From UHGV virus genome UHGV-0045429: a DNA stretch of 19,258 bases; one strand, given 5' to 3'. Position 1 is the first letter of the stretch. Every line of letters starts with the position of its first letter. The DNA comes from a virus. The notes under the pieces are model-generated. The model made no database searches, had not been told where the DNA came from, and was given only the letters and a program-made list of their open reading frames with translations. This document shows, piece after piece, positions 1-19,258 of this stretch. Both the position numbers and the translations under genes were made by a program.

Positions 1-675
1 TTAGCGCAGTTCAAAAAGATAACCTTGCCCACGTACGGTGGTGATCACCTCATGCGGATATTGCGCCTGAATTTTTTTACGCAGACGTCCCATCAGGACA
101 TCAATGGTGTGACTTTCACGCAGTTCGGCATCCGGGTAGAGCTGTAACATAAGCGAATCTTTACTAACGACTTTGCCGCTATTACGGATCAGCGTTTCCA
201 TAATGGTGTATTCGAAAGCCGTAAGTTTGATCACTTCATCGTTCACGGACAGTTCGCGGCGAGAAAGGTCCACCTGAAATGGCGGAAGCGAGATTATCTG
301 CGAGGCCAGGCCACTATTGCGGCGCATCAATGCCTGCATTCTTGCAACCACTTCTTCAATGTGAAACGGTTTGGTGACGTAATCATCTGCACCGGCACTG
401 AGCACTTCCACTTTGTCCTGCCAGCCTTCACGGGCAGTTAATACCAGAATGGGCAATGAAACGTCATTACTGCGCCAGCGGCGGATCAGTGATAGTCCGT
501 CTTCATCGGGGAGCCCTAAATCGACGATCGCAATATCCGGCAGGTGTTCATTAAGAAAATAGTCTGCTTCCTTTGCATCTTCTGCATCATCCACCTGGTG
601 GCCTAAATCCTGGAGCTGAACCTTAAGGTGGTGGCGTAATAATGCATTATCCTCAACAACCAGCACGCGCATCAT
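1..675 (-). CDS. phoP: PhoP, OmpR-family two-component response regulator (complete; stop codon at positions 1-3)
   Basis: 224-aa ORF; [20 protein letters not shown]... through ...TVRGQGY matches enterobacterial PhoP as I recall it (receiver domain plus winged-helix output). Tandem ATG ATG at 675/672 with GGGAGA upstream; true start may be 672. Confidence 0.9.
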
Positions 676-745: not shown

Positions 746-2035
746 TTAAATAACTTTTTTCATGCTCCCTCGCCCGTGGGGGCGTCCTGGGGGCAGTGCT
801 GTTGGCATCTGATTGTTCAGCATGTTGACCTGATCCTGGTTCATGTCGCCAATCCACTTGGAGTAAACCTCGTACACCATTCGCGCATCTTCATGCCCCA
901 TCTGACTCGCTATGAATGACGGGTTCGCTCCGGCCATCAACGTCCAGCAGGCATAGGTATGCCGTGACTGATAAGGATTCCTTTCGCGGATATTGGCAAG
1001 TTTAGTACCTCGCTTCCAGCCATAGGCAATCGAGTTCTTGGAAAAGTAACTGCCTTTCTTTGACGAATATGCTGTCGGTGAAAAAACGAAGCGAAGAGAT
1101 TGCTGCTCAGTTTTACCGATCTCCCGATGGTGAAATCGAATTTCTTGCTTCGGATTAGCGCCGGTGATTTCGTATTGCTCCTTCAGTGCATCCAGAGCAG
1201 GCCTAAGCAACGTTATTGTCCTTATTCCGGCATCTGTCTTAGGAGGTACAAATACTCGCTTATTCGTCAAACTTCTGGATACGTGGATTTCACCTTTTAC
1301 CAAATCAATATCTTCCCATGCCAGGGCGCACATCTCGCCCGGCCTCATCCCCGTATGTACGGCAACAATGATGATTAATGCCTGGCTACGGGGAAGGGCG
1401 GCTATCAGTGCCTGGTACTCATGAAGTAAAAGTGGGTCGGGATCATTTTTAGATAACTTGAGTCGCGACACTCCTTCATAAGGAGCATGCAATATAAACT
1501 GGCTTCGGTTTGCGAGCTTAAGCATTTCTGATAAAACTGCCATCTGTTTATTGACTGTTGAGGGCGCGCGGCCTTGCCGGGCCAGATTCGGCATTGCCGG
1601 GTTAATAATTGTACCGGTCAATAACTCCTTTCGGTAATGCAAAATATCGGCATGCTCAATATCTACCAGACGGGTATTTTCTCCGATTACACGCTGTAAC
1701 GTATTTACGACCGAAGTAAGCGATAGCAGCGTTGCACCAGATACCTCTAAGGCTTTGGTGTCTGTAAAAAAATCACTCAACTCTTTAAACGTGGTGATTT
1801 TTTTGGTTGTGATGAACTTCTTAAGCGCTTTGGATTCCGGGAAGCGTTCCGCATAGTCGAACTTACCGAGCTGTATTTCGCTTGTGATGAGTGCGCGAAG
1901 ATTTCCAGCTTTTTTGATGTTGCTGCTGTTCACCGTCCAACCGCGAAGGACTTCGCGGCAACGTTTGCCGCGATAGGTAAATGTAATCCGTATTTTCCCA
2001 TTATGCAGCTCAACGCCGGTTGGAAAGTCCATCAT
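746..2035 (-). CDS. int: Phage tyrosine integrase with N-terminal arm-binding domain
   Basis: 429-aa ORF; C-terminal catalytic signature ...RHTYACW...GHEDARMVYEVYSKW (R/H-x-x-R/Tyr). Start overlaps the stop of the upstream xis-like ORF. Confidence 0.9.
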   Translation of the reverse strand: MMDFPTGVELHNGKIRITFTYRGKRCREVLRGWTVNSSNIKKAGNLRALITSEIQLGKFDYAERFPESKALKKFITTKKITTFKELSDFFTDTKALEVSGATLLSLTSVVNTLQRVIGENTRLVDIEHADILHYRKELLTGTIINPAMPNLARQGRAPSTVNKQMAVLSEMLKLANRSQFILHAPYEGVSRLKLSKNDPDPLLLHEYQALIAALPRSQALIIIVAVHTGMRPGEMCALAWEDIDLVKGEIHVSRSLTNKRVFVPPKTDAGIRTITLLRPALDALKEQYEITGANPKQEIRFHHREIGKTEQQSLRFVFSPTAYSSKKGSYFSKNSIAYGWKRGTKLANIRERNPYQSRHTYACWTLMAGANPSFIASQMGHEDARMVYEVYSKWIGDMNQDQVNMLNNQMPTALPPGRPHGRGSMKKVI

Positions 2036-6046: not shown

Positions 6047-6463
6047 TTATTTTACTCGGGTTTTTCTTTTTCTCTTCTCTGCTTCTAGCAGTTCTTGCAG
6101 GCGGATGCTGTTGTTTTCGTTACGAGCGCGTAACTCTTCGAGGAAGCCGATCTGATCTGACTCGGGAAGTGAATCAAAGAGTTCTAATAACTCTAATTGA
6201 ATATCAGTTAATTCTCTTTGCTCTTCTAATGGTACCGGCGCGCCCGGAATCTGGGCCTCATCACCAAAAAGAAGCCATGCTGGCGCGCACTGCAGGCCTT
6301 TGCTAAGGGCGAACAACCTCTTTCCCGCCGGTTGAGTTTCATCGCGTTCCCACTGGGAAATAGTTACGTGTGCGACCTTTACCAGTTTGCCCAAGGCAGC
6401 CTGGGAAAGGTTTAGCTCTTTGCGTCGCCTTAAAAGACGAGTACCGAAGGTTTCTTTATCCAT
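6047..6463 (-). CDS. DicA/RacR-type prophage repressor (XRE-family HTH, no S24 peptidase domain)
   Basis: 138-aa ORF; N-terminal HTH (LNLSQAALGKLVKVAHVTISQWERDETQP), LFALSKGLQCAPAWLLFGDE and LELLELFDSLPESDQ closely parallel E. coli DicA as I recall it. No recognisable RBS before the ATG. Confidence 0.85.
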   Translation of the reverse strand: MDKETFGTRLLRRRKELNLSQAALGKLVKVAHVTISQWERDETQPAGKRLFALSKGLQCAPAWLLFGDEAQIPGAPVPLEEQRELTDIQLELLELFDSLPESDQIGFLEELRARNENNSIRLQELLEAEKRKRKTRVK

Positions 6464-6541: not shown

Positions 6542-6766
6542 GTGCTTAAAAAAGACGCAGTTATTTTTTTTGGAAGCAAATCAAAATTGGCAAAGGCTGC
6601 TGGTGTTGCTGCTTCATCAGTTTCTGTATGGGGCGACCTCGTGCCAGAGAAAAATGCGATGAGACTACAAATCGCTTCTGATGGTGCCCTGCGATATGAC
6701 CCCGAGGTCTATGACAAACATGCTAAAGCAAAACGGTCAGGAGAATTGAATGATGAAAATCAATGA
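6542..6766 (+). CDS. DicC/YdaS-like Cro-type regulator
   Basis: 74-aa ORF, GTG start with AAGGAG 8 nt upstream; MLKKDAVIFFGSKSKLAKAAG...GDLVPE...MRLQ...YDPEVYD closely matches E. coli DicC from memory; divergent from the repressor. Confidence 0.8.
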   Translation: MLKKDAVIFFGSKSKLAKAAGVAASSVSVWGDLVPEKNAMRLQIASDGALRYDPEVYDKHAKAKRSGELNDENQ

Positions 6767-12036: not shown

Positions 12037-12351
12037 ATGGCGCGTAAAAAATCGTATATAACCAAAGCCGAGCAACAGCACCTCGATCGCGTAGCGTCGT
12101 TGGGTTGTTGTGTCTGCAAAAATCTTGGTTACCCCGACTCTCCAGCGGGGATTCATCATATCCGAACCGGGCAGGGTGCAAGCCAGCGCTCCAGCCATTT
12201 CGAAACTCTGCCGTTATGCGCTGCCCACCACCAGACGGGTGGCTATGGCATTGCTTATCACGCTGGCCCTGAGATATGGGCGAAAAAATACGGCACCGAA
12301 ACTGAGCTATTAATTCAGGTTACGTCAGATTTAAACGGGGACTGGTCATGA
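12037..12351 (+). CDS. YbcO-like nin-region protein (putative nuclease, Cys/His-rich)
   Basis: 104-aa ORF directly upstream of and overlapping rusA, as ybcO-rusA in DLP12; CCVCKN...HHIR...PLCAAHH metal-binding-like pattern. Confidence 0.6.
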   Translation: MARKKSYITKAEQQHLDRVASLGCCVCKNLGYPDSPAGIHHIRTGQGASQRSSHFETLPLCAAHHQTGGYGIAYHAGPEIWAKKYGTETELLIQVTSDLNGDWS

Positions 12352-12707
12352 CCCGTTACCCCGTAACTCCAATCGGCAAACCCCGAATGACAAGAGCCGA
12401 CAAATGGAAGCAGCGCCCGCCGGTGCTCCGTTATCGTGTTTTCTGCGACGAGGTGCGCCTGCATGAAATCGTTCTGCCTGAAAGCGGCGCCCACGTTATT
12501 TTTGTTCTGCCAATGCCAGCGAGCTGGAGCCAGAAAAAACGCGCCAGCATGAACGGACAGCCTCACCAGCAAAAACCGGATATAGACAACCTCACCAAAT
12601 CCCTCATGGATGCCATTTACGACGACGACGCCCACATTTGGGACGTCCGTGCATCAAAAATCTGGGGTGATGAAGGCGCGATTATTATTCAGGAGGGCAA
12701 GGCGTGA
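12348..12707 (+). CDS. rusA: RusA-family Holliday junction resolvase
   Basis: 119-aa ORF; ...KPDIDNLTKSLMDAIYDDDAHIWD... matches the RusA acidic catalytic region as I recall it. Confidence 0.8.
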   Translation: MTRYPVTPIGKPRMTRADKWKQRPPVLRYRVFCDEVRLHEIVLPESGAHVIFVLPMPASWSQKKRASMNGQPHQQKPDIDNLTKSLMDAIYDDDAHIWDVRASKIWGDEGAIIIQEGKA

Positions 12708-14245
12708 TGCCCTTAACATACGGATCCGTATGCAGCGGAATTGAGGCAGCGAGTGTGGCGTGGGAGGTATTGGGCTGGCGGCCGTCATGGTTTTCTCAGT
12801 TCGATCCGGAACACAATTACAAAAACGGTCCTGATTTCCCGTCTGCGGTGCTGGCGCATCACTGGCCGCACGTAAAAAACCTTGGCGATATGACAAAAAT
12901 CGCCGCAGCAATCCGGCTCGGAGAAATTGAAGCGCCCGACGTTCTGGTAGGTGGTACTCCCTGCCAGGCATTCAGCATTGCTGGACTGCGTAATGGCCTG
13001 ACGGATTCACGCGGCCAACTAACCCTCGCTTTTGTAGAACTGGTAAACGCAATTGATGAAAAACGAAGAGAACAGGGAAAACCACCCGTCATTGTCGTCT
13101 GGGAAAATGTCCCCGGAGTATTCAGCAGCAGAGATAACGCTTTCGGATGTTTTCTTGCAGGGCTTGCCGGCGAAAGCCGTGAACTGGAATCACCAGGGCG
13201 AAAATGGACAAACGCTGGTTATGTGCTGGGACCAGAAAGGGCTGTCTGCTGGCGAGTGCTCGACGCTCAATTTTTCGGAGTGGCCCAACGACGCCGCCGT
13301 GTGTTTGTTATCGCAAGCGCTAGAGGGGATATCGATCCCGCAAAAATACTTTTTGAGTCCGAAGGCATGCGCCGGGATACTCCGCCGCGCAGAGAAACGG
13401 GGGAGATCGTTGCCGCCCTTATTGCAAACGGCGTTGGAGTGTGTGGCGCAGACGATAATCAGGGGCAGGCAGGGCACCTGATTGCCATGGCGCACGGACA
13501 GGCAGGGGCAGAAATTAAAACGGATGATTCCGCGCCTACGCTTACCTGTAACCATGAAGCGCCTATTGTTTTTAGCTGTAATGGACACGCATCGTTTACG
13601 CCGGGAGTCAGTGCTCTGCGAACTAAATCAGGCGCAGACCATGAAACGCTGGCTGTTCATGGTACGCAAGATCCCGACACTTTAAAGAACCTGGCACATA
13701 CGCTGGGTCGAAACCATGGGCAAGAGAATGCCGTTGCCTACTGTCTCCAGCATGCACAAATTAACCGGGCAGATAACGCTGGCCCACAGGGTAAAGGATG
13801 GCAAGAAGAATGCAGATTCACTCTGGATTCTCGTTCTTGTGCTGATGCAGTCGCTTATGCCTTCAAGGCCGGGCAGGGCGCAAAAGCGGGTGGCATTGGC
13901 TGGGCAGAGGAACAATCCCCGACACTGACGGCCGCCAGCAGTGGATCGAATTTATCCCCTTCAGTGGTGAAAAATATGGCCGTTCGCCGCCTTACTCCTG
14001 TCGAATGTGAACGCCTGCAGGGCTTCCCCGATAACCACACTTTAATCCCCCGTGATAAGCGTAAGCAGATTACTGCTGATGAGTACGCATACGCGCGCCA
14101 CCACAACCCAAAAATAACCGCAGAGGAAGCCTACAGGCTGGCGAAGGATGGTCCGCGCTATAAGGCCATTGGTAACAGCATGGCCGTACCGGTTATGCGC
14201 TGGATAGGAAGGCGAATCTCTAACGCTCTGGAGCAGACAATATGA
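12707..14245 (+). CDS. Orphan DNA (cytosine-5) methyltransferase
   Basis: Motif I-like YGSVCSGIEAA, motif IV GGTPCQAFSIAG, motif VI VVWENVPG, QRRRRVF, C-terminal RRLTPVECERLQGFPDNHT and GNSMAVPV; large variable region between. AGGAGGG RBS; start overlaps the rusA stop. No adjacent restriction endonuclease ORF. Confidence 0.9.
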   Translation: MPLTYGSVCSGIEAASVAWEVLGWRPSWFSQFDPEHNYKNGPDFPSAVLAHHWPHVKNLGDMTKIAAAIRLGEIEAPDVLVGGTPCQAFSIAGLRNGLTDSRGQLTLAFVELVNAIDEKRREQGKPPVIVVWENVPGVFSSRDNAFGCFLAGLAGESRELESPGRKWTNAGYVLGPERAVCWRVLDAQFFGVAQRRRRVFVIASARGDIDPAKILFESEGMRRDTPPRRETGEIVAALIANGVGVCGADDNQGQAGHLIAMAHGQAGAEIKTDDSAPTLTCNHEAPIVFSCNGHASFTPGVSALRTKSGADHETLAVHGTQDPDTLKNLAHTLGRNHGQENAVAYCLQHAQINRADNAGPQGKGWQEECRFTLDSRSCADAVAYAFKAGQGAKAGGIGWAEEQSPTLTAASSGSNLSPSVVKNMAVRRLTPVECERLQGFPDNHTLIPRDKRKQITADEYAYARHHNPKITAEEAYRLAKDGPRYKAIGNSMAVPVMRWIGRRISNALEQTI

Positions 14246-14877
14246 TGACCCCACGACAAAAACGAGCTCACAAATCAGCACTGGAACATGCGGCAGCCGC
14301 ACCGAATAAGCGCTGGCTGGGGAAATCAATACTGCTCACCGGTATTCAGTCAGCCTGGATCAAATCGCTACTCTGTGTTTGGGGTGAAAGTATTCGCGGT
14401 GGAATGGCACCAGGAACGCCGAAAGGCCACGCGTGCTGGCGGTCGCTAAAGGGTATGCGCTGGTCCGATAAATCGCTCGAGCGTTTTACAGAGGCACTGA
14501 CTCAGGCGAGAGGTGAGGGATTTAAAGGCGAGCTGGCGTTAAAACGTGCACACGCGATTCTCTGGCCCACAAAACCGGTTAGCGTTATCGACGAGGCTAT
14601 AACGGACGATGATGCAGATTTTATGGAAGCGTGCGTGCTGGAGGCGTTTGAAACAACGGATCCGGTTTACGTTATTGGGGTGAGCTACTACACGACGAGG
14701 AAAAAAATCTCGGACCTGACCCGGGATATTCAGCAGATAGCCCCCAGGCTGACTCCGGATGAGGCAAGAAAGCGCGTGCGCTGGTGTGTTGAAATATTCG
14801 GGGCGCGCGTGTATCTGGAGGCACGCCGTCAGTTACACGCTGATTTACAGAAATCAGAATCTGGCGGGAAAATATGA
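14242..14877 (+). CDS. Putative late-gene antiterminator (Q-like); assignment from position and size
   Basis: 211-aa ORF overlapping the MTase stop; GGAG RBS; sits where Q lies in lambdoid genomes (after the nin/rusA block). Family membership not confirmed by any motif. Confidence 0.45.
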   Translation: MMTPRQKRAHKSALEHAAAAPNKRWLGKSILLTGIQSAWIKSLLCVWGESIRGGMAPGTPKGHACWRSLKGMRWSDKSLERFTEALTQARGEGFKGELALKRAHAILWPTKPVSVIDEAITDDDADFMEACVLEAFETTDPVYVIGVSYYTTRKKISDLTRDIQQIAPRLTPDEARKRVRWCVEIFGARVYLEARRQLHADLQKSESGGKI

Positions 14878-15415: not shown

Positions 15416-15628
15416 TTAGCGTGATTTTTTTCGTTTGAAAAACTCGTAAATTTCGATGCCAACAATAGCGATGGCGTAAAAAGGCCAAAGAAAAGAGGTT
15501 CTAACCGTATCCAGCAGGTCAAATTCCATATCGAGTATTCGATCCGCATGAACCAACAGTGCGAACATCACGATAAATCCCGCGACGTTTAAGGCTAGGT
15601 AAAGATAGAGACTCATGGCTAAATCCAT
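15416..15628 (-). CDS. Small hydrophobic (membrane) protein, convergent with the 98-aa ORF
   Basis: 70-aa ORF; two predicted hydrophobic helices (LYLYLALNVAGFIVMFALLV and FLWPFYAIAIVGIEI) and basic C-terminus KRKKSR; weak RBS. Confidence 0.45.
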   Translation of the reverse strand: MDLAMSLYLYLALNVAGFIVMFALLVHADRILDMEFDLLDTVRTSFLWPFYAIAIVGIEIYEFFKRKKSR

Positions 15629-15812
15629 TTATTAAGGTTTGCTGTGAGTCTACGTGCGATAACCACACAATTAAAAATTGGTATTACAGATCGATTTATC
15701 TTTATCGATCGTTGAAAACGATCGTCATGACACAAATAGCTTAGTGATTGATTGTTATTTAATCAGTTGGAGCCAATTATTTAGTAATTAGTGCTTATTT
15801 TATTAAGCGGCA

Positions 15813-15840
15813 TTGAAAACGAGCCATATTTATTGATAAT
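15813..15840 (+). promoter_or_regulatory. Sigma70-type promoter: TTGAAA (-35), 16-bp spacer, GATAAT (-10)
   Basis: TTGAAA at 15813-15818 and GATAAT at 15835-15840; predicted start about 15847. Confidence 0.4.
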
Positions 15841-15847
15841 TACCTCA

Positions 15848-15935
15848 TGCTTGGCAGAGCTGCGCCACGATGGCAGCGACGATAAGCGAACAATTTGAAC
15901 ATAACGAGAACCCCGCCAGCGCGGGGTTTTTGCTT
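15848..15935 (+). ncRNA. Candidate ~90-nt small RNA or late-leader transcript (promoter to intrinsic terminator, no credible ORF)
   Basis: Only a 12-codon ORF without RBS lies between the promoter and terminator; internal GCTGC...GCAGC stem. Entirely a sequence-based prediction. Confidence 0.3.
15909..15935 (+). terminator. Rho-independent terminator: CCCCGC-CAGC-GCGGGG plus T5
   Basis: Stem 15911-15916 / 15921-15926 followed by TTTTT at 15927-15931. Confidence 0.7.
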
Positions 15936-15946
15936 TCCGGCGATCC

Positions 15947-15989
15947 GACAGGGGTATTCGCGAACGTGCTACGGCACAGTACCCCTGTC
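15947..15989. repeat. 10-bp perfect inverted repeat GACAGGGGTA ... TACCCCTGTC (23-nt spacer)
   Basis: Arms at 15947-15956 and 15980-15989, immediately downstream of the terminator. Confidence 0.45.
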
Positions 15990-16175
15990 AGATCGTCGTT
16001 ATGGTTACTTCTATATGTCAGTTTAGGCCGACATCATTTGTGCCTATCCTTCTGGTCTATTGGATGAGTCAAACGTACCTTGAATGAGGATTGTAGGTGC
16101 CAGCCCGTAAGCCCTGCGGCATGGGGCTTAGTCGAAAAAACACCTCTTTTTTGCAACTTTTTATCACGTTTTCCC

Positions 16176-16223
16176 GTGACAAGATCCTGTTTACTGTTAG
16201 AATCACTCCACATGATTCATGTG
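16176..16223 (+). promoter_or_regulatory. Promoter of the two-gene operon with operator-like palindrome
   Basis: GTGACA (-35, 16176-16181), 16-bp spacer, extended -10 TGtTAGAAT (16195-16203); palindrome CACATG-ATT-CATGTG at 16209-16223 at the predicted start site. Confidence 0.4.
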
Positions 16224-16280
16224 ATGTGAATCTTTTAAAAAAAATAAAAACACATCTATTTCAACGAGTAAGCTCAAAAA

Positions 16281-17045
16281 ATGCAGGCTCAACCCAAGAC
16301 TAAACACCAAGAGTTGGTCGAGACGCTATCATTATATATAGACTCGCGAACCCCGTTAGAAGAACCTCTTTTGGGTGAAATCTTTCGCGATATCAATAAA
16401 CAGTCCGGTGCGTCTCGTGCGTATCTCATGGCTTTGTGGATGGAAGTTCAGAACAGACATGATGAGACAGTGGAATGGTATCTAGAGGCGATAGCTACTT
16501 CTGGTGAGCTCGCTTCTGTTGTCGCAGGTAACTATCTGAGTTATCTGAGTTGCTCAGCGCACAATCTTTTTCACAGAACAGAATTGTTCCGATTGGTAGA
16601 TATATATTGTACTAAGCGGATAAGAAAAATGGCCAGGAATGCAGCATTTTGCATGGGAAATGACCGGCTTGTTAACCGATTCACTGTGATGATGAAGGCT
16701 TTACTCGACGGCCAAGAGCGGGAAGAAATTGAGCGTGAGGGGGCAAAAATGGTGGAAGCTATTGTTACTTTTAAAGAAGCCACTAAGCTAACTTCATCTG
16801 AAATCCAGCAGTTGTGTGATTCAGCCGAACAGATTGCAAATAGCCACGGCGTGAATTGCGCTGGTGTTGAATATTTTCTGAGTGGTGGATATGACAACGC
16901 CATAATCCTATTTGCAGAAACCAGCGACGCTAGCACACTTACCACTATGAACATGGAACTCATAGGTTTGCTTGCTGATGATGCCTATATCGATCGTCCA
17001 TTTACCTCATGGTTTAAGAGCGCAGATATGAAGGATAGGATCTAA
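16281..17045 (+). CDS. Hypothetical protein (254 aa), first gene of cargo operon; no recognisable catalytic motif
   Basis: ATG 16281; stop TAA overlaps the start of the downstream gene (TAATG); lower GC than the phage core by eye; no Walker or nucleotidyltransferase motif. Confidence 0.7.
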   Translation: MQAQPKTKHQELVETLSLYIDSRTPLEEPLLGEIFRDINKQSGASRAYLMALWMEVQNRHDETVEWYLEAIATSGELASVVAGNYLSYLSCSAHNLFHRTELFRLVDIYCTKRIRKMARNAAFCMGNDRLVNRFTVMMKALLDGQEREEIEREGAKMVEAIVTFKEATKLTSSEIQQLCDSAEQIANSHGVNCAGVEYFLSGGYDNAIILFAETSDASTLTTMNMELIGLLADDAYIDRPFTSWFKSADMKDRI

Positions 17046-17446
17046 TGAGCGTATCAGGTCAAGATTTCATTGATTTTGCAGAGAAATGTCTCGATTTCGG
17101 TGATGAGATAGGCTTCAGGAACGTAGTTGGACGCTCCTACTATGGTGTTTACCATGAGATCTGCAGTAAACTTGAGCATTGCTATGTATTGACCTCTCAT
17201 GAGGGGGTGCGTCAGTATCTTATGAGCTCTTCACAGTGTAAAAATGAGCCGTTTGATAAAGCCGGGCTGAGGAGGATTGGTGTTTTCCTTCATAGTCTTC
17301 ACGTGCAAAGAAAGTGGGCTGATTACACACTTCAGCGCGATTTGGTTAAAACTGATGCTGAGTCGGCGCTCAATACTGCGAAACAAGTAATGGATGAAAT
17401 TAAGGCGTTGCATGAGGCAGTTTACCCTCCTCAGCCAGCAGCATAA
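17045..17446 (+). CDS. HEPN-like protein (133 aa) with N-terminal R-x6-H motif; candidate RNase toxin/effector
   Basis: GRSYYGVYH (R30 at 17132-17134, H37 at 17153-17155) fits the HEPN Rx4-6H signature; AGGA RBS; translationally coupled to the upstream gene; followed by terminator c. Confidence 0.65.
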   Translation: MSVSGQDFIDFAEKCLDFGDEIGFRNVVGRSYYGVYHEICSKLEHCYVLTSHEGVRQYLMSSSQCKNEPFDKAGLRRIGVFLHSLHVQRKWADYTLQRDLVKTDAESALNTAKQVMDEIKALHEAVYPPQPAA

Positions 17447-18319: not shown

Positions 18320-19258
18320 TTATGTGCCTAAATGTTTATTAAAGAATGGAATAATCTCCGATAGCGCTTGTGCCGTCGCTTCCGGACGATCATACAGATC
18401 ATAGTGAGATACCCCTTTCACAACCTGCAGCGTCTTCTCAACGGAGCGCGCGCGCTGATAAAGTTCATAACCGTCGCGATAAGAACCAAAACCACCAGGA
18501 ACATCGCCAATAACAATATGTAATGGTTGTATCAGTAGCTTTTCCGTAAAGGCAAAAGCATCCCAGTTTAAGGCCGGTGCGGTGCTGGTAAGTCGCAGTT
18601 TGTTAGGCGAGCCTGGCTTTTGCCCGCGCGGGGTCGTGTAGTAATCAACGGCCTCAATGAGGTCGATATCGTTGATGTTCGCATTCGCCAACGCTTCTGC
18701 ATTGTCAGGAATATAACCGACAACAAGAGCAGCGGCTCCCCGAGCTTCAGCAGTACGCTGTTTACCCAGCGCGTCAATCGTTCTGAGCGCGGCATCCGGA
18801 CTGGAATCCCCTTCACGCATAATGCGCCCATAATTGGCGGCAACCACAGTGGCAACGGCTTTGAAACGGTGATCAATGGTAGCGGCGCTAACGGCATATC
18901 CACCGCCGCCACAAACGCCTAAAACCCCAATACGATCTTCATCCACGTAGGCTAAAGTCACCAGATAGTCTATCGCGCAGCGAAAGTCTTCCACGCGGAT
19001 GGATGGATTTTCGCTAAAGCGTGGCTCACCCCCGCTTTCACCCTGGGTAGAGGCATCGAAAGCAAGAGTAATAAATCCAGCTTCAGTTAGCTTCTGGCCG
19101 TAGACTGCGCCAGATGTCTGTTCTTTACAACTGCTGATAGGATGGGCGCAAACAATCGCCGGGTATTTCTGGTTGGCATCAAATCCCTCAGGTAAGCGGA
19201 GAGTGGCGGCAACTTGCCAGCTGTTGTGCCGGAATGAAACGAGTTGTTCATGAGACAT
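18320..19258 (-). CDS. Alpha/beta hydrolase of the dienelactone-hydrolase type (Cys nucleophile)
   Basis: 312-aa ORF; nucleophile elbow GVLGVCGGGGYA (G-x-C-x-G-G). The start codon lies at the last three bases of the window, so the upstream region is not visible. Confidence 0.8.
   Translation of the reverse strand: MSHEQLVSFRHNSWQVAATLRLPEGFDANQKYPAIVCAHPISSCKEQTSGAVYGQKLTEAGFITLAFDASTQGESGGEPRFSENPSIRVEDFRCAIDYLVTLAYVDEDRIGVLGVCGGGGYAVSAATIDHRFKAVATVVAANYGRIMREGDSSPDAALRTIDALGKQRTAEARGAAALVVGYIPDNAEALANANINDIDLIEAVDYYTTPRGQKPGSPNKLRLTSTAPALNWDAFAFTEKLLIQPLHIVIGDVPGGFGSYRDGYELYQRARSVEKTLQVVKGVSHYDLYDRPEATAQALSEIIPFFNKHLGT

Follow-up and report, generated by a model that had tools for sequence, protein, structure and literature searches.

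A conserved promoter-leader-terminator unit associated with a Q-like gene in a lambdoid prophage remnant: a probable late-transcription switch

The viral genome UHGV-0045429, analysed here as a stretch of 19,258 nucleotides (the window), carries a sigma-70-type promoter closely followed by an intrinsic terminator and an inverted repeat, and thus raises the question of which function a unit producing only a short, untranslated RNA might have. The original prediction had left this choice between a small RNA (sRNA) gene and a relic of the pR'-tR' late leader of lambdoid phages, on which the antiterminator Q acts. The comparative data reported below strongly support the latter possibility, in that the unit is the conserved partner of a Q-like gene and precedes the lysis genes in complete phages. 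It is probable (roughly 0.8) that the unit represents a cis-acting late-transcription switch, analogous to pR'-qut-tR', of an Sb49/gp25-type Q-like protein. The gene and the components of the unit are the following:

14242-14877, plus strand: Q-like gene of the Sb49 / ZF40 gp25 type, encoding a putative late antiterminator of 211 aa
15813-15818 and 15835-15840, plus strand: pR'-like sigma-70 promoter, with -35 TTGAAA, a 16-bp spacer and -10 GATAAT (10/12 consensus matches)
15846-15851, plus strand: CATGCT (-1 to +5), resembling a -10 hexamer and including A15847, the inferred start; candidate sigma-dependent pause element
15846-15879, plus strand: conserved initial transcribed block, -1 to +33; candidate Q-utilisation site
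15866-15871, plus strand: CACGAT (+20 to +25), also similar to a -10 hexamer and to the lambda pause element
15909-15936, plus strand: tR'-like intrinsic terminator, with an 8-bp G+C-rich stem (15909-15928), a CAGC loop and a UUUUUGCUUU tail
15938-15998, plus strand: post-terminator hairpin of 61 nt; its roughly 26 bp are interrupted by a single C.A mismatch and by an asymmetric internal loop

The promoter and the terminator were found where the original prediction had placed them. The start was set at A15847 because of the usual spacing from the -10 GATAAT, and the predicted terminated RNA would be 85-90 nt long (about 87 nt) and untranslated; the 90-nt stretch folds with -34.7 kcal/mol (z = -4.1). 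The terminator stem, AACCCCGC-CAGC-GCGGGGTT, is followed by TTTTTGCTTT, the U-tract reaching position 15936, and has a folding energy of -13.8 kcal/mol alone and of -19.3 kcal/mol with the extended stem. A simple terminator scan of the window did not pick it up, probably because its greedy stem extension swallowed the T-run. The perfect 10-bp inverted repeat that had been noticed beyond it (GACAGGGGTA/TACCCCTGTC) turned out to be the core of the longer 61-nt hairpin.

The association between this leader and the Q-like gene was analysed in two samples. A collection of 160 viral loci was retrieved through two members of the Q-like protein family, and 166 loci in total were searched with nhmmer using window positions 15800-16000 as the query. 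The leader was matched in 165 of them, always on the plus strand and downstream of the Q-like gene. The distance from the stop codon of this gene to the start site is usually about 90 nt; inserts of about 0.5-2 kb are present in some loci, the window among them. Homologues of the leader were found in an Escherichia coli prophage, Citrobacter phage Chris1, Klebsiella phages, Salmonella phage ST64B and Pectobacterium phage ZF40. In the prophage of E. coli SC476, in Chris1, in ST64B and in ZF40, the leader lies between the Sb49/gp25-type gene and the holin/lysozyme genes; the ZF40 annotation of the former reads "anti-termination protein Q-like".

The second, independent sample was obtained by searching viral contigs with the hairpin arm alone, GACAGGGGTATTCGCG, which yielded 120 loci. 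The Q-like gene was upstream of 93 out of the 94 window-type leaders with enough sequence, a count that includes two variants first scored as "other" and reclassified by eye. The rest of these loci harbor at least four other leader types, located behind genes of the Q82 type (seven loci), the Q21/933W type (five) and the Q-lambda type (two). Judging from this hairpin-anchored test, the leader is specific to the Q-like protein, and the Q-like gene together with its leader is interchangeable with true Q modules before the same 5' module of the late operon. Such interchangeability represents the strongest evidence, among these sequence comparisons, for a Q role of the Q-like protein.

An exact search for the leader core retrieved it from 32 species genomes, belonging to Enterobacterales genera and to a few metagenome-assembled genomes labelled otherwise. 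Exact copies lie on contigs of the latter kind labelled Alphaproteobacteria, Microbacterium, Caulobacter, Acidobacteriota, Woesebacteria and others (L342, L346-L350, L353, L364, L365), which are probably mis-binned phage or enterobacterial contigs. In locus L175 (IMGVR_UViG_2874319281_000002), from a phage with a 933W/Q21-type Q, a chimeric leader is present about 190 nt upstream of the hairpin, with the 3' half of a window-type leader fused behind a tRNA-like sequence; this points to recombination within the leader.

Conservation along the unit, computed over 112 unique leaders, is not uniform. The -35 hexamer is conserved at 98.7% and the -10 hexamer at 91.7%; the transcribed part decreases from 98.5% (-1 to +18) to 93% (+19 to +33) and to 84% (+34 to +58), followed by 89% in the terminator and 95-99% in the hairpin arms. 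Immediately outside the unit, the value is about 56%. A GCCA is also conserved within the promoter spacer, at -24 to -21. The initial transcribed block of the window contains TGGCAG twice (15852-15857 and 15871-15876) and a GAGC core at +12 to +15.

The same layout recurs in two distant clades, i.e. the P0137 clade (45 loci), whose protein is about 29% identical to that of the window, and the P0126 clade (5 loci), about 38% identical. Directly past the gene, these loci show a -35 hexamer, a 17-nt spacer, a -10 hexamer, 5 nt, the hexamer YATGCT, a clade-specific block and a terminator. The sequence TTGAAAACG surrounds the -35 hexamer in many distant-clade leaders, and its variants TTGCAAACG and TTGATAACG also occur. 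A second copy of TTGAAAACG was observed in the window at 15712-15720, upstream of a 70-aa ORF (open reading frame) that separates the Q-like gene from the leader.

The hexamer at the start site is of special interest for the putative pause. The two key positions of a -10 element are A2 and T6, and a pattern search found a YATGCT-type hexamer with both of them in 192/192 leaders of clades A, B and C, a figure partly built into the search, since its pattern already demanded most of the hexamer, with T6 obligatory and no base other than A or T accepted at position 2. A leader outside the 192 (L205) reads CTTACT. YATGCT at -1 to +5, almost where lambda has its pause element AACGAT, is taken as the best candidate for a sigma-dependent pause element. 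The downstream CACGAT was initially favoured for its likeness to lambda, the 7-mer ACGATGG being common to this region and to the lambda pause element AACGATGGG; it was then downgraded, since CACGAT is missing from the distant clades and is replaced by CAC-TCG, a variant with a 1-nt deletion, in about 29 loci. Other variants found at this position are CGCGAT, CATGAT, CACTAT, CACACT and GATAAT.

The elements recognised by the host polymerase (-35, -10 and YATGCT) are common to the clades, whereas the block from +6 to +33 differs between them. We compared its divergence with that of the protein: the correlation with protein distance is r = 0.64 in clade A and r = 0.59 in clade B for the transcribed block, versus 0.32 and 0.40, respectively, for the promoter spacer, even though the latter lies between the gene and the block. 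The spacer is, however, less constrained and hence noisier. Because the block tracks protein distance better than the spacer does, these data fit a putative protein-specific recognition element at +6 to +33.

The leader also begins with an inverted repeat that is compensated between clades, namely GCTT...AAGC in the window, TGCTC...GAGCA in clade B and TACTC...GAGTA in L329. These compensations are two in number and were seen by eye; within clade A, several changes in the arms are uncompensated. The repeat would be compatible with a helix in the RNA as well as with a symmetric site in the DNA. As for the two 5' helices suggested by the single-sequence fold, no compensatory pair was found among 100 unique leaders and RNAalifold does not predict them; for want of such changes, these 5' RNA hairpins are not claimed.

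The situation is different at the 3' end, as revealed by the same set of 100 unique leaders. The terminator stem is retained despite variable loops and includes two covarying pairs, one of them being AU in 62 sequences and GC in 35. In the long hairpin, whose 19-nt arms (15938-15956 and 15980-15998) are 89% complementary and fold with -38.2 kcal/mol, 15 of the 20 pairs are invariant, and switches from G.U to G-C and from U.G to U-A occur. Its apical stem covaries as well (GC 46, GU 25, AU 24, UA 2; second pair CG 90, UA 7), and at alignment columns 103 and 150 the window hairpin has C-G in place of A-U, a compensated change. The whole 155-nt stretch including the hairpin has z = -7.2 relative to shuffled sequences. 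Moreover, the plus-strand RNA is the more stable one in 72 of the 100 sequences, by 2.5 kcal/mol on average. Because of the covariation, the G.U switches and this greater stability, the hairpin is most likely a plus-strand RNA element. A role on the minus strand, at the 3' end of convergent genes, was also considered and is disfavoured, since the G.U pairs stabilise the plus-strand RNA in those 72 sequences.

The same hairpin is present behind the other leader types accompanying Q82-, Q21- and Q-lambda-type genes, and the part common to leaders of different Q types starts within the U-tract of the terminator, TTTTTGCTTTCCGGCGA. By this comparison, the post-terminator hairpin is a separate module common to the late operons behind all four Q types; by analogy with RNase III-type substrates, its role would most plausibly be in processing or stability. 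A second hairpin family, CTGCACAACAGGTAAG...CGTTGTGGTGAAT, was found directly after tR' in lambda itself (L290, 975-1065) and after the terminators of distant Q-like clades (L299, L301, L305, L312, L322 and L339). We know of no assigned function for this family. Since a long hairpin follows tR' in lambda and a lambda-like version is present in the distant clades, the post-tR' hairpin looks like a general lambdoid feature.

In the window, the 8-mers CATAACGA (15900-15907) and TCGTTATG (15996-16003), which flank the terminator and the hairpin, are perfectly complementary. This pairing may be window-specific or due to chance, because the 3' copy sits in the variable region past the hairpin.

The Q-like protein itself belongs to a small family. 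The 211-aa ORF matches phrog_753, "anti-termination protein Q-like" (E 4e-54); 282 matches, all "hypothetical", were found among 5.8 billion clusters, and 65 representatives among 1.84 billion. No match was retrieved from Pfam (E <= 0.01), NCBIfam or PADLOC, and probing the PDB with phmmer gave spurious kinase matches only. The AlphaFold model has a mean pLDDT (predicted local distance difference test) of 67.7, with values of 70-89 in the C-terminal half and a poor region at residues 25-71; a Foldseek search with this model against the PDB and BFVD returned no match, and the sequence identity to Q21 (PDB 6jnx chain P) is 11%. In the literature searched, no experiments on the family were found, and its members are annotated only as "hypothetical" or "Q-like".

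Several points weigh against the interpretation of the unit as the switch of this protein. According to the Pfam search, the sequence of the Q-like protein falls outside PF06530, PF03589 and PF06323, and its alignment with Q933W by hhalign has a probability of 1.4%; because of the latter value and of the empty Foldseek search, the modelled fold link to solved Q proteins represents a lead and not a membership. The family is a putative antiterminator, so assigned by association, and the association between gene and leader may in part derive from the physical linkage of neighbouring DNA. As for the leader, no Q-binding DNA element (QBE) was identified in it, and its sequence offers no way to choose between CATGCT and CACGAT as the pause. 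Lastly, the promoter scan of the window gave 8 sites versus 9.0 expected, i.e. the promoter match alone is at chance level. The case for the unit therefore rests on the comparative evidence: at the level of sequence, the unit is a real one because more than 160 phage contigs conserve it.

How does the proposed switch compare with the known ones? The canonical Q cassette follows the same logic (10.1101/651190; PMC6606751; PMC9388147), and three Q families have been defined, PF06530, PF03589 and PF06323 (PMC9388147); by position, at least five Q types are recognised, a typing credited to Grose and Casjens (PMC12315714). The unit shares with the lambda, 21 and 82 cassettes the order of antiterminator gene, constitutive sigma-70 promoter, short leader, intrinsic terminator and lysis genes, but its protein lies outside the three families. 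Like lambda, it has a -10-like hexamer at the start of the transcript (AACGAT at +1 to +6 in lambda, CATGCT at -1 to +5 here) and a long hairpin directly past the terminator. In lambda and 21, the QBE lies between the -35 and the -10 (PMC6606751), whereas the clade-specific conservation is found here in the transcribed +6 to +33 region. The QBE hexamer of Q21 is TGAGCA (PMC6606751); this hexamer is present in the distant clade-B leaders, and its GAGC core in the window. Unlike the direct repeat of TGAGCA in the Q21 element, however, the motif is located here downstream of the start, with no direct repeat in the promoter spacer.

On the basis of these data, the following events can be proposed. 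A near-consensus, probably constitutive sigma-70 promoter would start the RNA at about A15847 and, as long as the Q-like protein is absent, polymerase would halt at 15909-15936, freeing the untranslated RNA of about 87 nt. Upon induction, the early-right operon would produce the Q-like protein, which would load onto polymerase in the conserved initial transcribed region, most likely at a sigma-70-dependent pause set by CATGCT at -1 to +5, with specificity given by the clade-specific block at +6 to +33. The modified polymerase would then pass the terminator and the hairpin and enter the late genes, while the 5' end of the late operon would carry the 61-nt hairpin as an independent RNA module. 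Within this scheme, the anatomy of the unit, its conservation, its association with the Q-like gene and its interchangeability with true Q modules are observed, whereas the activity of the promoter, the pause, the way of loading, antitermination as such and the role of the hairpin are inferred.

With a pause at about +16, the DNA of the +6 to +33 block would lie within or ahead of polymerase, and therefore recognition of the nascent RNA would be possible. This leads to a more speculative proposal, which we advance tentatively and consider possible rather than probable: the Sb49/gp25-type proteins might represent a fourth, mechanistically distinct class of late antiterminators, whose specificity element resides in the first 35 or so transcribed nucleotides and not in the promoter DNA. 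It might be read either as nascent RNA (for instance, as the 5' stem GCUU...AAGC, or UGCUC...GAGCA in clade B) or, immediately behind a displaced pause, as DNA, so that loading would be a hybrid of the Q type (sigma pause, DNA) and the N/put type (RNA). If it is true that the specificity element is read in the transcript, this would change the picture of how a protein in the Q position loads onto polymerase.

The finding is ordinary in its logic. To the three families of the structural work (PMC9388147), the leader and the protein that goes with it add another, which is widespread in Enterobacterales phages and offers a concrete, testable entry to an uncharacterised group of putative antiterminators. 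The comparison also provides a testable map, made up of the -10-like hexamer recurring at the start site, the clade-specific transcribed block co-varying with the protein and the post-terminator hairpin module, the last being common to all Q types.

Other explanations of the unit can be envisaged. The RNA of about 87 nt might act in trans, binding Hfq or ProQ and regulating host or phage mRNAs in lysogeny. A short, untranslated transcript with a strong terminator and a U-tail, the A/U-rich single-stranded ACAAUUUGAACAUAAC ahead of that terminator and the retention of an intact unit in a prophage without late genes would all suit an sRNA, and a precedent exists in StxS, an Hfq-binding sRNA that derives from the pR'-tR' transcript of Stx phages (PMC7547250). 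The predicted RNA resembles StxS in being a short terminated late-leader RNA made in lysogeny from a constitutive pR'-type promoter, but it has no evident resemblance, by eye, to the 933W leader, and no Rfam match at the gathering threshold (a search by E-value gave only sub-threshold matches driven by the terminator). The strongest conservation, moreover, is found at the promoter and at the extreme 5' end, whereas the single-stranded region that could contain a seed reaches only 84%; and the leader type changes with the type of the upstream Q and co-varies with the protein, as expected of a cis site and not of a host-directed seed. An sRNA role is not needed to explain the conservation and we regard it as unlikely, even though it is compatible with the late-leader interpretation, the two not being mutually exclusive. 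Titles and abstracts of the literature searched contained nothing specific on an sRNA at the leader site of ST64B, and tRNA scans gave nothing meaningful.

Since the Q-like protein shares no homology with the proven Q families, it might instead be a sigma-region-4-like DNA-binding activator or repressor of the leader promoter or of a nearby one, the terminator being a simple attenuator or insulator. This appears quite improbable: a promoter already so close to the consensus needs no activator, a strong promoter with a terminator within 90 nt and lysis genes beyond follows the logic of antitermination, and behind true Q82-, Q21- and Q-lambda-type genes the same U-tract and hairpin module occupies the same genome position. 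Very little credit can be given to a leader RNA that, as the put RNA of HK022, folds and makes polymerase resistant to termination without any protein. The recurring 5'-terminal repeat (GCUU...AAGC here, UGCUC...GAGCA in clade B, UACUC...GAGUA in L329) and the fold of the 5' 44 nt (-14.7 kcal/mol) recall put and the lambda N-nut system, with which the unit would share a conserved element in the nascent transcript and possibly a 5' stem-loop. However, a self-acting antiterminator placed before its own terminator would provide no regulation, and a leader so strictly paired with the Q-like gene speaks for a protein partner; the clade A 5' helices show no compensatory change and several uncompensated ones, so that, unlike put, the RNA structure is without covariation support within the clade. 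The unit further differs from both systems in its late-promoter position, its Q-position protein and its immediate terminator. The least credible alternative is that the region codes for a small protein. A mechanical ORF of 65 aa exists (15870-16067), and the homologous stretch of ST64B is deposited as the coding sequence (CDS) sb50; but the ORF runs across the terminator and the hairpin, has no PHROG match, and conservation follows the promoter, start-site and stem pattern and not a codon periodicity. The leader is non-coding because its homologues carry frame-shifting 1-nt indels within this stretch, which agrees with the earlier statement that no credible ORF lies between promoter and terminator. 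In ST64B, sb50 (L003, 4002-4361) starts at the ATG of the conserved start-site motif CATGCTTGG and overlaps the leader and the terminator; it is very likely mis-annotated non-coding DNA, and similar CDS calls should likewise be read as non-coding.

We can now place the late switch in its prophage. The window contains a lambdoid-type prophage of about 17 kb, extending from the integrase to about 17.5 kb, with host genes resuming at 18320. Besides those listed above, its main features are:

1-675, minus strand: host response regulator
746-2035, minus strand: integrase
6047-6463, minus strand: cI-like repressor
6542-6766: Cro
12348-12707: RusA
12704-14245: C5-cytosine methylase
15416-15628, minus strand: small ORF of 70 aa, within the insert that separates the leader from the Q-like gene; same position in 37 related loci
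16281-17446, plus strand: two cargo ORFs, 254 and 133 aa, matching phrog_17809 and phrog_5176, both of unknown function

The host genes beyond the cargo ORFs are those for a hydrolase, a short-chain dehydrogenase/reductase, a LysR regulator and aaeAB-type proteins (locus L167, GCA_902363475.1). No lysis or structural gene was found in the window prophage, which, by its gene content, is a defective remnant with an intact early region and late switch. The late genes being gone, read-through could reach only the two cargo ORFs. The word "relic" used in the original prediction is therefore apt: because of the deletion of the late genes, the predicted switch of the window is a relic able to feed only these two ORFs. 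The prophage nonetheless retains a functional-looking switch, which could express the cargo genes upon induction. Their position past the terminator is as it had been described; the label "HEPN-like operon" given to them finds no support in Pfam, NCBIfam or PADLOC, and neither Pfam nor PADLOC gave any other assignment. Both ORFs are absent from all other loci of the gene-neighbourhood comparison.

The inserted 70-aa ORF is not part of the switch and accounts for the gap of about 930 bp between the Q-like gene and the leader. Upstream of it (15689-15723), three GATC sites lie within 35 bp. Ahead of the 254-aa cargo ORF lies another promoter-like site, GTGACA-16-TAGAAT preceded by a TG (16176-16233), and its -10 is overlapped by an operator-like palindrome with 17-nt arms (16199-16215 / 16217-16233); as far as the sequence indicates, the cargo ORFs may have their own regulated promoter.
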